Shown: in pieces, positions 10,649-14,897 of the stretch
Numbering within the stretch: the stretch's first letter is position 1
Layout of the letters: every line of letters starts with the position of its first letter
Made by a program: the position numbers and the translations under genes
Origin: Escherichia phage AV117
Sequence record: OR352947.1
Length of the DNA: 64,000 nt
Reading direction: 5' to 3' (one strand)
Notes under the pieces: generated by a model
Database searches by the model: none
What the model was told of the DNA's origin: nothing
Seen by the model: the letters and a program-made list of their open reading frames with translations, nothing else

Positions 10649-12462
10649 TGGTGTTTAACCCTATGCATGATTTCTTTATTTTTGCCGAGATTAAATCCAC
10701 GTTCATTCGGATTTCCAAGATAACCGCATGTTCTTCTTATTGTGTTCATCTTTTTAGGATCAGTTTCTCCACAAATAGAACAAACAAATCCGTTTTCGGT
10801 AGGAGTCATTTCATGGGTACTTCCACACGTAAAACATTTATCTACTGGCATATTAACACCAAAATAATCTAAATGTTGCGCAGCATAATCCCAGACAGCC
10901 TCAAGACCTTTTAGGTTATTTTTCATATCAGGAAGTTCAACATAAGAAATGTGTCCACCGGTCGCAATGAAATGATATGGGGCTTCGCGAGAAATCTTTT
11001 CAAACGGAGTAATATTTTCTTCTACTGAAACGTGGAAACTATTAGTGTACCAGCCTTTATCAGTAACATCTTTTACACTTCCATATTTTTCGATATCAAG
11101 TTTACAGAAGCGATAGCACAGGTTTTCAGCAGGTGTAGAATACAAGCTAAAAGCAAAACCGGTTCTTTCGGTCCACTGCTTAAGACGAGCATTCATTTTA
11201 GTTAAAATTTCCTTTCCAATATCACGACCGACAAGAATATTCAATTCGTGAATACCAATGTATCCTAAGGACACTGAACTTCTACCGTTTTTAAATAACT
11301 CAATTATATCGTCCTCAGGTTTAAGACGAACCCCGAATGCACCTTCTTGGTAAAGAATAGGAGCAACAGTAGCTTTAACTCCTTTTAAGGAACTAATTCT
11401 ACACATCAAAGCTTCAAAACACAGATCCATTCGTTCATTAAATAGCTCAACAAATTTCTGTTCATTGAATTGTGTTCCAATATAAGAATCTAACGCAATA
11501 CGAGGAAGATTCAGTGTTACAACACCAAGATTATTACGTCCATCAAGAATTTCATTACCGGTCGAATCTTTCCATACGCTCAAGAAACTACGGCAACCCA
11601 TTGGAGAAACAGGAACAGATGAACCGGTGATAGCTTTATTATTCTTAACTGAAATAATATCAGGATACATTCTTTTGCTTGCGCATTCTAAAGCAAGCTG
11701 CTTAATATCATAGTTCGGGTCGTCTTTATAAAGATTGACACCCTCTTCAACGAACATAACAAGTTTAGGGAAAATAGGAGTTATTCCATCACGACCAAGA
11801 CCTTTGATACGATTTTTCAGAATTGCTTTCTGAATCATTCGTTCAGTCCAGTCAGTTCCCGTGCCAAATGTAATTGTTACAAAAGGCGTTTGTCCGTTTG
11901 AACTAAAGAGAGTATTTACTTCGTATTCATACGCTTGGAATGCATCGTATACGTCTTTTTCTGTTTTAGATTGGGCATAATTCAACGCATCAGCGATTTG
12001 CCATTTTTCTGCATCCTCAATATGTTTTGCATAGGTGCGTTTAACATAAGGAGAAAGTACTTTATCTACATTAGCAAAAGTCGTTCCGCCGTACTGATGT
12101 GAAGCAACTTGTGCAGTAATTTGTGCCATAATTGCAGTAGCAACGCCGATTGATTTAGGAGTTTCAATTTGAGCATTGCCTAATTTAAATCCATTCTCAA
12201 GCATCCCCTTTAAATCGACTAAACAGCAATTAGTAAATGGAAGAGCAGGAGAATAATCAATATCATGGAAATGGATAATTCCGCTTTCATGTGCTTTCAT
12301 AATAAAAGACGGGACCATATTTTTGGCAATGTGCTTAGACACAATACCAGCCATAAGGTCCCGTTGAGTTGGAAAAACACGAGAATCTTTATTAGCATTC
12401 TCGTTCAAAAGATCTTTATTAGTTTTATGAATTAATCCTTCAATTTCTTTTTCAATTTTCAT
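10645..12462 (-). CDS. nrdD: Anaerobic ribonucleoside-triphosphate reductase NrdD (intronless)
   Basis: 605 aa; C-terminal glycyl-radical motif RRTCGYLG and C-x2-C...C-x2-C zinc ribbon; single uninterrupted ORF. Confidence 0.9.
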   Translation of the reverse strand: MKIEKEIEGLIHKTNKDLLNENANKDSRVFPTQRDLMAGIVSKHIAKNMVPSFIMKAHESGIIHFHDIDYSPALPFTNCCLVDLKGMLENGFKLGNAQIETPKSIGVATAIMAQITAQVASHQYGGTTFANVDKVLSPYVKRTYAKHIEDAEKWQIADALNYAQSKTEKDVYDAFQAYEYEVNTLFSSNGQTPFVTITFGTGTDWTERMIQKAILKNRIKGLGRDGITPIFPKLVMFVEEGVNLYKDDPNYDIKQLALECASKRMYPDIISVKNNKAITGSSVPVSPMGCRSFLSVWKDSTGNEILDGRNNLGVVTLNLPRIALDSYIGTQFNEQKFVELFNERMDLCFEALMCRISSLKGVKATVAPILYQEGAFGVRLKPEDDIIELFKNGRSSVSLGYIGIHELNILVGRDIGKEILTKMNARLKQWTERTGFAFSLYSTPAENLCYRFCKLDIEKYGSVKDVTDKGWYTNSFHVSVEENITPFEKISREAPYHFIATGGHISYVELPDMKNNLKGLEAVWDYAAQHLDYFGVNMPVDKCFTCGSTHEMTPTENGFVCSICGETDPKKMNTIRRTCGYLGNPNERGFNLGKNKEIMHRVKHQ

Positions 12463-12932
12463 TTTAAACTCTTTCTAAGCTGCTTTTTGAATGAAGCTAT
12501 TAATTGTGTTTTGGTATCAGATTCATTATATTCAAATCCTCTTTGAAGCATCTCAGCCATCATTTCCTCTTTACCTAGTCTTGAGAACTCTTTAGTTTTG
12601 TCTGGAACAAAATTAGGATGGATATTATTATCAGAATAATCTTGTTTCAAATAAGCAAGAAGAGCTTCAAGCCATTCGAGGTAGTCGACATCACGTCCTT
12701 TAAGACCGGAACGGTTGAACTTATGCTTCATTTGACCTTCTGCTGCGTTGCACAGATTACAGAGTAACCCACGAACTCTACCGGCTTGTGGCCCGTTTAA
12801 TTCGTGGTCGTGGTCAAGGTGGTTACCTTGAACATCAGGGTCTAATTCACGGTGGCAAATAGGACACTTACCGTTCTGTGCATCATAAAATTTTTGTTTT
12901 TCTTCTTTATATTTTGCGCCTGATAATAACAT
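12459..12932 (-). CDS. 49: Endonuclease VII (Holliday junction resolvase) gp49
   Basis: 157 aa, MLLSGAKYKEEKQKFYDAQNGKCPICHREL...HLDHDHELNG...; sequence matches T4 gp49. Confidence 0.85.
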   Translation of the reverse strand: MLLSGAKYKEEKQKFYDAQNGKCPICHRELDPDVQGNHLDHDHELNGPQAGRVRGLLCNLCNAAEGQMKHKFNRSGLKGRDVDYLEWLEALLAYLKQDYSDNNIHPNFVPDKTKEFSRLGKEEMMAEMLQRGFEYNESDTKTQLIASFKKQLRKSLK

Positions 12933-12961
12933 GATAAACCCTTACCTTAAATAGATAAGGG

Positions 12962-12969
12962 TATTTATA
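12962..12969 (-). promoter_or_regulatory. Late promoter TATAAATA upstream of gene 49
   Basis: Exact TATAAATA on the minus strand about 30 nt upstream of the gp49 ATG. Confidence 0.5.
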
Positions 12970-12971
12970 AT

Positions 12972-13151
12972 TTAGTAAACGTTATAAAAGTCTCGATGAA
13001 AACGTTTATATTGGCGAATCATTCTTTTAGTAGGACGTGTTACCGAAATGATTGAAGTCCTCATGTTCGGATTGTTTGGAGCACCAATTATAACAAATTT
13101 CCAAGATTTTTGACCGTTTGTTCTTTCGCCAAAAAATAATGCAGTTTTCAT
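12972..13151 (-). CDS. Small basic protein (59 aa), paralogue of 13576-13746
   Basis: Hand translation MKTALFFGERTNGQKSWKFVIIGAPNNPNMRTSIISVTRPTKRMIRQYKRFHRDFYNVY; shares the VTRPTKR...HR.FY motif with the second copy. Confidence 0.35.
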   Translation of the reverse strand: MKTALFFGERTNGQKSWKFVIIGAPNNPNMRTSIISVTRPTKRMIRQYKRFHRDFYNVY

Positions 13152-13160
13152 AATAAGCCC

Positions 13161-13574
13161 TTAACTTAAACGTCTTTCTAAATATTCAATGTATTCCGCT
13201 GCGGCTTGCATCAGATTACCTTCATAACCGTCATTATTTTCTTGGGCGGCTAATTTAGCTAAAGCATAAGAAATACGTTCACCTTCGAATTCGCCAAGTC
13301 CACCATCACAAACTACTTGGTCAATTTCTTCGAGTTCATCTATTGAATGGGATTCCCAGAAGCACCAAAGAGAAGTATCACGGTCATAGATGCAAAGTTT
13401 CTCACCTGTGTTCAACATCACTTCGATAATGCCATGGTCGCCATAACCATCTTCGGCAGTAGTACCAATTACCTTGATGATCGTATCTTTCTTTAATTCG
13501 GGAAACTTATCTTGGAGTTCTTCGTCTTCTTTAACAATCTTGAACCATTTACCGCGAGTTTCAGAAATATTCAT
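13161..13574 (-). CDS. Hypothetical acidic protein
   Basis: 137-aa ORF flanked on both sides by the paralogous small basic ORFs. Confidence 0.5.
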   Translation of the reverse strand: MNISETRGKWFKIVKEDEELQDKFPELKKDTIIKVIGTTAEDGYGDHGIIEVMLNTGEKLCIYDRDTSLWCFWESHSIDELEEIDQVVCDGGLGEFEGERISYALAKLAAQENNDGYEGNLMQAAAEYIEYLERRLS

Positions 13575-13575
13575 A

Positions 13576-13746
13576 TCAATATTCTCTATAAAAGTTACGA
13601 TGAGAACGTTTAGCTTTGCGAAGCTGACGTTTAGTAGGACGAACTGTAAATGGTTGTCCAGAGAAAAAATTTGGTTCAGTTTTAATCAACACATACCAAT
13701 CGTGTTCGCCGCTTTTTAATAAACGATATAACAATTTAACTTGCAT
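13576..13746 (-). CDS. Small basic protein (56 aa), paralogue of 12972-13151
   Basis: MQVKLLYRLLKSGEHDWYVLIKTEPNFFSGQPFTVRPTKRQLRKAKRSHRNFYREY; DNA-level similarity too (shared tttagtaggacg block). Confidence 0.35.
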   Translation of the reverse strand: MQVKLLYRLLKSGEHDWYVLIKTEPNFFSGQPFTVRPTKRQLRKAKRSHRNFYREY

Positions 13747-13874
13747 AATAATCTCTTCCAATTTCCAAATCAATCATATCGTTTACTGTAGGTTCATCAT
13801 AACACGTTTCTTCGTCGTTGTAAACTGTTTCGACGTCTGGCTCGACAGTTTCCCATCGAGCCGAATACCATGGT

Positions 13875-14231
13875 TTAACCCCGGAGTTTATTGAGCTCTT
13901 CATAATCAATCCAGGATTCTAGCCCTGACGGCAGGTCACATTCAATGTTCCACAGAAGCTCTTCAACGGCTTGCAGGCGATTATATTCTTCAACGGTAAT
14001 GGTAACCATTGGTGCAACCGGTTCCGCCTTTTTAACCATCATATCGTTCATCAGGACGTAAAGGTCATCACGAACGACGGTGTCGTTCCAACCCCATGAT
14101 TTGGCTTCGTAAGCTAATGATGAAGGGAGCACATTTAAAACTTCAATAATAGTTGGAGCATCAGGACCAAGTTCATTGGCACAAACTTCGTATACATCTT
14201 GGAAATCTTTAAGATTTAATGAATATGTCAT
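13875..14231 (-). CDS. Hypothetical protein
   Basis: 118-aa ORF coupled to nrdC. Confidence 0.5.
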   Translation of the reverse strand: MTYSLNLKDFQDVYEVCANELGPDAPTIIEVLNVLPSSLAYEAKSWGWNDTVVRDDLYVLMNDMMVKKAEPVAPMVTITVEEYNRLQAVEELLWNIECDLPSGLESWIDYEELNKLRG

Positions 14232-14491
14232 TTAAAATATTCTCGCAGTTGGTCAAATCCACCAATATGACTTCCATCAGGAGCAAACACTTGAGGCATA
14301 GTCAATCCGACTTGTGATTCACGTCCAAGCTTAACCAGAAGCTCAGCAATTTTCTCATCATCAAAAACACCTTTTTCTGGCATAACATTAATGAATTCGA
14401 ATGGCTGTTTCTTAACAGTCAGCAATCGTTTCGCATTATCACAATAAATGCATTTATGAATAGTAGAGTCATACCCGTACACTTTAAACAT
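14228..14491 (-). CDS. nrdC: Thioredoxin/glutaredoxin NrdC
   Basis: 87 aa from ATG 14491 (MFKVYGYDSTIHKCIYCDNAKRLL...), SD AAAGGA; CxxC motif; sequence matches T4 NrdC. Confidence 0.8.
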   Translation of the reverse strand: MFKVYGYDSTIHKCIYCDNAKRLLTVKKQPFEFINVMPEKGVFDDEKIAELLVKLGRESQVGLTMPQVFAPDGSHIGGFDQLREYFK

Positions 14492-14897
14492 TATTTTTCC
14501 TTTCATCGATTAAATATGTAATGCCAAATACAATACATGTAATAAAACCTGTGATACAGATAGAAACCAACAACACTGTACCAAAGAACCAAATCAAGTT
14601 ATCTTTAGTAGTTTGTTTGATATCCATCTCACGAATTTCTATAGCTATCGTATCACCTTTATTCAGAAGCGTATAAAACGACGGTGATACATGCCTGTCA
14701 AAAACACGGCCTTGTTCATCTTTATAAACTGCAATAAATTCCAATTTAGAATATTTTCCTGTAGATTGGCCTGAGATTAATTCCACTACCTCCACAGGAA
14801 TTACTTTAGTTTCCATGTAAGTATTCTGGCTGTTCCAAATGAATGGAATAATAGCAAAAACTAAAGCTGCGATAAAACAACGAAGGCTATATCTCAT
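14484..14897 (-). CDS. Hypothetical membrane protein
   Basis: 137 aa with N- and C-terminal hydrophobic segments. Confidence 0.5.
   Translation of the reverse strand: MRYSLRCFIAALVFAIIPFIWNSQNTYMETKVIPVEVVELISGQSTGKYSKLEFIAVYKDEQGRVFDRHVSPSFYTLLNKGDTIAIEIREMDIKQTTKDNLIWFFGTVLLVSICITGFITCIVFGITYLIDERKNNV

Follow-up and report, generated by a model that had tools for sequence, protein, structure and literature searches.

Deletions and duplications between short direct repeats are established genetics in bacteriophage T4, the rII deletion end points being one example, and the region of T-even genomes considered here is already known as plastic. T4 PinA, a protein of 161 amino acids (aa), binds and inhibits the Lon protease of Escherichia coli, as determined biochemically (PMC8835725 and its references 38, 49, and 50). 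Here, we analyzed a 64,000-nucleotide (nt) stretch of DNA from Escherichia phage AV117 (sequence record OR352947.1), referred to as the window, in which pin, the gene for a PinA homologue, lies between two small open reading frames (ORFs) for basic proteins. Our analyses support, with considerable confidence, that these ORFs are paralogous genes of the DUF7279 family that flank pin and that their conserved 3' ends are the repeat at which the locus rearranges.

The rearrangements resemble the short-repeat deletions and duplications of T4 in that hybrid genes join the two copies in a shared 9-nt run within a 55-nt, 80%-identical repeat, and in that a duplication in phage ZN18 appears to be joined at a shared CTTGAAA. 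They differ from deletions of the T4 rII type in that the repeat is formed by the coding sequences of two diverged paralogues and in that the outcome is an intact chimeric gene together with the loss of an accessory host-takeover gene; moreover, the events were deduced from natural isolates and not from laboratory observation. Judged by its sequence, the Pin protein of the window is a full-length homologue of the T4 protein, for which Lon inhibition was demonstrated; it has 137 aa, compared to 161 aa in T4 PinA, and ends where the Pfam model ends.

Two small ORFs of the DUF7279 family flank pin in phage AV117

The genes and repeats on which the analysis centers are the following:

pin, inhibitor of the host Lon protease: 13161-13574, minus strand; 137 aa, isoelectric point (pI) 4.3; bracketed by the two paralogues
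Upstream DUF7279 gene, orthologue of RB69ORF089c (089c-like gene): 13576-13746, minus strand; 56 aa from the ATG (MQVKLL...), pI 10.5
Downstream DUF7279 gene, orthologue of RB69ORF087c (087c-like gene): 12972-13151, minus strand; 59 aa, pI 11.4
Direct-repeat copy 1: 12983-13037; 3' end of the 087c-like gene, encodes RPTKRMIRQYKRFHRDFY
Direct-repeat copy 2: 13587-13641; 3' end of the 089c-like gene, encodes RPTKRQLRKAKRSHRNFY
Inferred crossover site ACTTTTATA (TATAAAAGT on the plus strand): 12983-12991; based on the hybrid junctions in L011, L008, and L018

A preliminary description of the window had noted two small basic ORFs around an acidic 137-aa gene. The coordinates and lengths were borne out, the pI values (10.5, 4.3, and 11.4) agree with a basic-acidic-basic order, and the C-terminal peptides and DNA blocks quoted there (tttagtaggacg at 13026-13037 and 13630-13641, plus gatga(a/g)aacgttta) are correct. 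The central gene was assigned as pin based on a match to Inhibitor_I24 (PF10465) with 160.1 bits versus a cut-off of 27, covering profile positions 2-136 of 136, and a match to phrog_2167 (E=4.6e-51); it is annotated as pin in RB69 and JS09. Both small ORFs are annotated as "hypothetical" in RB69 (RB69ORF087c and RB69ORF089c), and their products share 86-100% identity with proteins listed as hypothetical in RB69, JS09, and NHEP36, with the 087c-like protein being 100% identical in NHEP36.

The two small proteins align with each other over their full length (BLASTP, 21/59 identities, 36%, E=3e-10). Both match positions 1-59 of the 59-position profile of phrog_3272 (E=2e-30 for the 087c-like and 7.9e-26 for the 089c-like protein), and both belong to Pfam family DUF7279 (PF23945), with scores of 53.8 and 52.4 bits, respectively, the gathering cut-off being 24.5 bits. 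When all six frames of the entire 64-kb window were examined with hmmsearch, no third member of the DUF7279 family was identified. These sequence comparisons show that the two small ORFs are true paralogues of the DUF7279/phrog_3272 family.

The similarity is unevenly distributed. A repeat search identified a 55-nt direct repeat (12983-13037 versus 13587-13641) with 80% identity and a spacing of 604 nt, while the proteins are ~20% identical over the N-terminal two thirds, ahead of the RPTK motif. In the C-terminal part, 10 of the 13 identical residues are encoded by the same codon, compared to 6.0 expected from the codon usage of the window (P=0.02); the corresponding number for the N-terminal part is 0/5. 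For these 13 codons, the sharing hints that the 3' ends may have been homogenized by gene conversion or may be under a nucleic-acid-level constraint.

Several lines of evidence support that both small ORFs are genuine protein-coding genes. Using NG86 on 8 Mosigvirus alleles of the 087c type and 13 sequences of the 089c type, we obtained ratios of nonsynonymous to synonymous substitution rates (dN/dS) of 0.11 and 0.19, respectively, and of 0.10 for pin; because of the former two values, both small ORFs are taken to evolve as coding sequence. A protein of the 087c type with 53-59% identity is encoded at the same site upstream of gene 49 in the Tequatroviruses G50, IME340, and ZN18 and in Dhakavirus JS10, and the small proteins are kept despite DNA divergence across Mosigvirus, Tequatrovirus, Dhakavirus, and Gelderlandvirus. 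At ≥80% identity, the 087c type is present in about 54 records and the 089c type in 145 phage records, the latter all being Mosigvirus-like.

Both small ORFs have Shine-Dalgarno-like sequences and are packed against their neighbors as is typical of T4. The ATG of the 089c-like gene overlaps the end of gene 49.1 by 11 nt, and its TGA stop codon lies 1 nt ahead of the pin ATG (TGA-T-ATG). The 087c-like gene starts 9 nt past the pin stop codon in the same frame, is preceded by the Shine-Dalgarno-like sequence TAAGGG, and ends with a TAA stop codon at 12974-12972.

Arrangements of the 49.1-49 interval in related phages

We identified at least nine arrangements (A to I) of the interval between genes 49.1 and 49:

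A: 089c-pin-087c; the window phage; 087c type in about 54 records (≥80% identity)
B: 089c-pin, with the pin stop codon abutting TAAATACCC and the 087c-like copy lost; APCEc01 and mar005P1, read directly
C: a single hybrid ORF and no pin; PTE-Eco05, phiE142, PECP20, ST0, Shf125875, and others
D: pin, then one DUF7279 gene; Tequatroviruses G50 and IME340
E: Pin with a fused tail ...SFSDRMIQQYKRLHQMFYNT; T4, T2, and T6
F: fused tail, 23-nt pin-end remnant, intact small gene; ZN18-type Tequatroviruses
G: pin split into two ORFs in swapped order, then one DUF7279 gene; Dhakavirus JS10
H: two DUF7279 genes around an unrelated 116-aa gene; Salmonella phage S16
I: one DUF7279 gene between 49.1 and 49 and no pin; Citrobacter phage CkP1

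For type B, the number of Mosigvirus records (~60) was obtained by subtraction of record counts from the 145 records with 089c.

In type C, the body of 089c is joined to the last three codons, the stop codon, and the 3' flank of 087c. The resulting protein ends with ...RPTKRQLRKAKRSHRNFY followed by NVY (...KRSHRNFY/NVY) in PTE-Eco05, phiE142, and PECP20. The junction sequence of the hybrid type is CATCGTAACTTTTATAACGTTTAC, and the 85-nt hybrid junction is present as a whole in about 28 records, which represent about 24 distinct phages. The crossover lies inside ACTTTTATA, and the promoter-proximal end of the 55-nt repeat contains no other stretch of nine identical bases. Starting from a type A genome, one unequal exchange or slippage event involving both copies would generate the hybrid ORF with loss of pin. 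We read type C as a deletion because the reverse direction would need a donor that is already of type A; likewise, because the pin-less Mosigvirus site is a hybrid of both copies, it is read as the product of a deletion and not as an empty ancestral site. By parsimony, type C probably arose when pin was deleted via the repeat formed by the paralogues. The hybrids have NVY and NIY tails, as do the 087c alleles, and their neighboring genes also differ, which is compatible with, but does not prove, more than one hybrid-forming event.

The 3' end of a DUF7279 gene also appears in T4. The last 15 residues of T4 PinA (MIQQYKRLHQMFYNT; L003, NC_000866, 2898-2948, minus strand) match the tail of the small ORF of G50, and the last 48 nt of T4 pin are ~94% identical to the 3' end of this ORF (45/48, counted by eye). 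The T4-type fusion junction is present in 238 records. On this evidence from sequence, T4 PinA is an in-frame fusion in which only the tail of the DUF7279 gene was kept. In the T4 remnant, two Arg residues of the conserved motif are replaced by Gln (RQYKRLHRMF to QQYKRLHQMF). In Yersinia phage ZN18 (L007, 2391-2682), pin with a T4-like tail is followed by a 23-nt pin-end remnant (96% repeat) and then by an intact DUF7279 gene, the tail of which repeats the first tail with 88% identity over 51 nt. From our reading of the sequence, the ZN18 junction appears to be a tandem duplication joined at the shared CTTGAAA.

In JS10 (L005, 1023-1504), a 59-aa ORF corresponds to Inhibitor_I24 positions 88-136 and precedes a 100-aa ORF corresponding to positions 3-74, with both ORFs scoring barely above the gathering threshold. 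In S16 (L019, 2001-3831), the DUF7279 paralogues gp48.1 and gp48.2 (42.4 and 41.7 bits versus PF23945) flank gp48.3, a 116-aa protein of phrog_13441. We found no DNA repeat between the two S16 DUF7279 copies. Homology between Pin and gp48.3 was considered and rejected (BLASTP, E=9), and gp48.3 was treated as unrelated cargo. Orthology of 089c and gp48.1, suggested by position and a shared 3-residue gap, was also rejected, as gp48.1 is nearer to 087c (40%) than to 089c (25%) and the sequences are too short to support such an assignment. The S16 116-aa protein has a weakly FeoA-like N-terminus, and the position of gene 49 in this phage is taken by a SegE-type GIY-YIG homing endonuclease gene (PF19835, E=2e-33). 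A Mosigvirus-like metagenome contig (ERR15137311_302; L021, 3780-4607) has an extra 275-aa ORF without a Pfam match between the 087c-like gene and gene 49.

Two irregular alleles were observed. Compared to JS09 and the window, an A-run of 089c is longer by one A in the RB69 reference (L001, AY303349, ~2794-2830), which cuts the annotated product to 38 aa and reflects either a genuine pseudogene or an error in sequencing. In IMG/VR contig 3300030021_000012 (L006, 2480-2520), the ATG of the 087c-like gene is lost, apparently via a changed A-run near the start, while the remaining frame is intact; a pseudogene or an assembly error may explain the lost ATG. One or both copies are absent from whole lineages. 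Because of this absence, the frameshift in RB69, and the lost start codon in L006, we regard the small DUF7279 genes, as far as the genome comparisons go, as accessory and dispensable.

Predicted structure, distribution, and possible function of the small proteins

AlphaFold2 modelled both small proteins with a mean predicted local distance difference test score of 87.1 and with the same strand-strand-strand-helix order; in the model of the 087c-like protein, the strands comprise residues 2-9, 15-24, and 27-36 and the helix residues 42-58. Each protein is thus predicted to consist of a three-stranded antiparallel sheet followed by a 17-residue amphipathic C-terminal helix. The conserved motif RPTKR-x2-R-x2-KR-x-HR-x-FY places about six Arg/Lys residues on this helix. 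Conserved residues, which map to the N-cap and the length of the helix, are W17, R39-P40-T41-K42, R46, K49, R50, H52, R53, F55, and Y56; this set is invariant among the six closest sequences, and only T41, R46, K49, and R53 remain when S16 and JS10 are added. The net charge at pH 7 is +9.6 and +8.7 for the small proteins, versus -17 for Pin; in the small proteins, the C-terminal 21 residues contribute +6 to +8 of this charge.

Searched exhaustively with a profile, 1.84 billion representative proteins yielded 7 matches, two of which (a 1685-aa protein and a 195-aa repeat protein) were set aside as they look low-complexity. A word-indexed search gave 22 matches, which originated without exception in T-even-like phages of enterobacteria or in unnamed metagenome contigs, and IMG/VR gave only 3 loci of the family. 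Thus, these database searches show the DUF7279/phrog_3272 family to be confined to T-even-like phages of enterobacteria; as members of this family, the ORFs of the window are not different in kind.

Foldseek searches of the PDB gave no significant match (E≥0.68), with scattered chains of double-stranded RNA-binding domains (dsRBDs) at low probability, and matches in BFVD were exclusively to uncharacterized proteins of other T4-like phages (S16, Merlin, and CBH8). The dsRBD/HicA-like and integrase arm-binding/AP2-like folds are similar to the small proteins in size (55-60 aa), secondary-structure order, and positive charge, but have no significant structural or sequence match with them. A role in defense or as a toxin-antitoxin system was considered and rejected, as there was no PADLOC match and Pfam and PHROG assign the small ORFs only to families of unknown function. 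In the literature that was searched, we identified no paper on DUF7279, RB69ORF087c, or RB69ORF089c. We tentatively suggest that the small proteins might be dispensable accessory polyanion binders, with nucleic acid as the most likely ligand and an acidic protein as a possible one.

Neighboring genes, late promoter, and hairpin upstream of gene 49

The window belongs to an RB69-like Mosigvirus, and the 2.2-kb surroundings of the locus match RB69-like Mosigvirus genomes such as pEK20, JS09, and RB69 at 96-98% identity. The order on the minus strand is nrdC, 118-aa ORF, 49.1, 56-aa ORF, pin, 59-aa ORF, gene 49, and nrdD. A hairpin and a late promoter separate the 59-aa ORF from gene 49, and the whole is one tightly packed minus-strand unit. 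The neighboring features are the following:

nrdC: 14228-14506, minus strand
118-aa ORF: 13875-14231, minus strand
Gene 49.1: 13736-13909, minus strand; 57 aa, acidic, pI 4.05, phrog_2382; located upstream as part of the same compact transcription unit
Spacer between the 087c-like gene and gene 49: 12933-12971, minus strand; late promoter TATAAATA and 10-bp hairpin
Gene 49, endonuclease VII: 12459-12932, minus strand

According to the preliminary description, the downstream small ORF overlaps the gene 49 late promoter. This is not the case, as TATAAATA is located at 12969-12962, two bases past the stop codon of the 087c-like gene. The promoter lies directly upstream of a 10-bp hairpin (ACCCUUAUCU/AGGUAAGGGU; -12.9 kcal/mol, z=-2.3), in which the 3' arm pairs the Shine-Dalgarno sequence of gene 49 and covers AGGUAAGGG. 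This is the layout of T4-type late control: such hairpins prevent T4 late genes from being translated from long early transcripts, and late transcripts that begin inside the stem get translated (PMC2988022 and its reference 60, Barth et al. 1988). Sequence and position of the gene 49 hairpin and promoter fit this published scheme. The core TAAATACCCTTATCTATTTAAGGTAAGGG is invariant in T4, G50, APCEc01, and PTE-Eco05, and the TAAATA core of the promoter and the hairpin are unchanged between T4 and the window, while the first promoter bases vary (TATAAATA in the window and PTE-Eco05; AATAAATA in T4, G50, and APCEc01). Because type B genomes keep this element without the repeat, hairpin and promoter are independent of the small ORF.

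Further upstream, the C-terminal half of the 118-aa ORF (13875-14231) matches phrog_3402, "antitoxin from a toxin-antitoxin system" (E=3e-32), and the ORF has a faint match to the T7 gp5.9 RecBCD inhibitor (E=0.04). In the RB69 annotation, this region is divided between two small ORFs, and the variant in PTE-Eco05 is 111 aa long and differs at its N-terminus. Phages phiC120 (L009, 2051-2347), JK45, moha, and the WF phages have an extra 98-aa gene between nrdC and the 118-aa ORF; by eye, this gene is apparently 49.3-like, and its absence from the window explains a 315-nt alignment gap. Inside gene 49.1 (13796-13824, minus strand), ~50 nt upstream of the start of the 089c-like gene, there is a sigma-70-like match (TTTACA, 17-nt spacer, TATGAT, extended TG; 10/12 positions), which is a match to the consensus alone.

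Discussion

The data presented here argue strongly for paralogous DUF7279 genes on both sides of pin, the conserved 3' ends of which recombine. Several points weigh against this picture or against the function suggested for the small proteins. The single copy without pin in CkP1 is compatible with an older one-copy state, even if it belongs to a different subfamily in a distant phage; the shared-codon excess in the 3' repeat is based on 13 codons; the proteins are too short for a phylogenetic tree to tell which copy is ancestral; and the order of events, with two copies first and deletions later, is parsimonious and undated. With respect to function, no member of the DUF7279 family has an assigned function, and we suggest polyanion binding solely because of charge and predicted fold. 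A hidden Markov model search of PDB sequences gave nothing for the small proteins, a PADLOC search of all three proteins gave zero matches at E≤1, and neither ribosome-profiling nor proteomic data from RB69-like phages came up in the literature search.

An alternative is that pin is cargo that was inserted in or next to a single ancestral DUF7279 gene, with the small ORFs being the duplicated borders of the insertion. The organization of CkP1 (49.1, one DUF7279 gene, gene 49, and no pin), the different gene of phrog_13441 between the two DUF7279 genes of S16, the extra 275-aa ORF at the same locus of the Mosigvirus-like metagenome contig, and the codon sharing in the paralogue 3' ends above expectation would all be in line with such an insertion. 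Nonetheless, we consider it unlikely. Near-identical border repeats were not found: the repeat spans 55 nt at 80% identity, and the remainder of the paralogues, which are 36% identical overall, is ~20% identical as protein and shares 0 codons at identical residues, arguing against recent borders. Moreover, pin is accompanied by the downstream copy alone in many Tequatroviruses and in JS10, where pin is split, the S16 copies have no common DNA repeat, and the pin-less Mosigvirus hybrid is predicted by a deletion and not by an empty site. Consequently, the suggestion made in the preliminary description of a local duplication bracketing an inserted gene finds no support as a recent event, given the N-terminal divergence, the relatives with only the downstream copy, and the hybrid ORF.

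We regard it as equally doubtful that the small basic proteins are dedicated partners of the acidic Pin protein, modulating Lon inhibition or acting as protected Lon substrates. The genes adjoin pin, mostly with overlapping or nearly abutting starts and stops, in Mosigvirus, Tequatrovirus, and Dhakavirus, the proteins are oppositely charged (+9 versus -17), and the remnant of the C-terminal helix is fused in frame to Pin in the T4 type, with this junction being kept in 238 records. However, DUF7279 genes are present without pin in CkP1, S16, and about 24 Mosigviruses, pin occurs with one flank or a remnant alone, and the two Arg-to-Gln replacements in the T4 remnant suggest relaxed rather than retained constraint. 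The separate occurrence of DUF7279 genes and pin also applies to the nucleic-acid-binding pair with a partner that the preliminary description had raised.

Two farther-reaching ideas, for which we see a small chance at best, are that DUF7279 would represent a new class of very small Lon-linked polyanion-binding effectors or that the 3' ends would be portable homology arms. Lon binds DNA and degrades small basic proteins. If the proteins were such effectors, Lon binding by T4 PinA would depend in part on its DUF7279-derived tail. If the 3' ends were homology arms, coinfecting T-even phages would use them to swap or drop cargo, i.e., pin in Mosigvirus and gp48.3 in S16; as a general rule, homology arms were rejected based on the S16 copies, which have no DNA repeat.

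Finally, although the DNA identity clusters in the 55 nt that immediately precede the next gene, codon sharing there is above expectation, and a regulatory hairpin lies directly downstream of the 087c-like copy, it is highly improbable that the similarity reflects a non-coding DNA or RNA element upstream of pin and gene 49 that acts in translational coupling or regulation, with the ORFs being incidental, as both full-length ORFs are under purifying selection and match each other over their full length as proteins, so that the similarity is not confined to a non-coding repeat as the preliminary description had allowed for, the proteins are conserved where the DNA diverged across four genera, the fold predictions for both ORFs are confident and concordant, and in APCEc01-type phages, which lack the repeat, the hairpin and promoter of gene 49 are retained.

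The small genes themselves are ordinary, being two members of a catalogued, uncharacterized family of tiny phage proteins. For DUF7279, this study adds the presence of paralogues in a single genome, a fold prediction, a test for selection, and rearrangements supported by the repeat, and a confidently modelled basic fold of 56-59 residues is now at hand for the family. For T4, the chimeric origin of the PinA C-terminus matters for mapping of the Lon-binding surface. In Mosigvirus, a repeat made of two diverged paralogues would account for the natural loss of pin in about a fifth of the sequenced phages, and the pin-less isolates are natural pin-null strains that may be used to ask what Pin is for.

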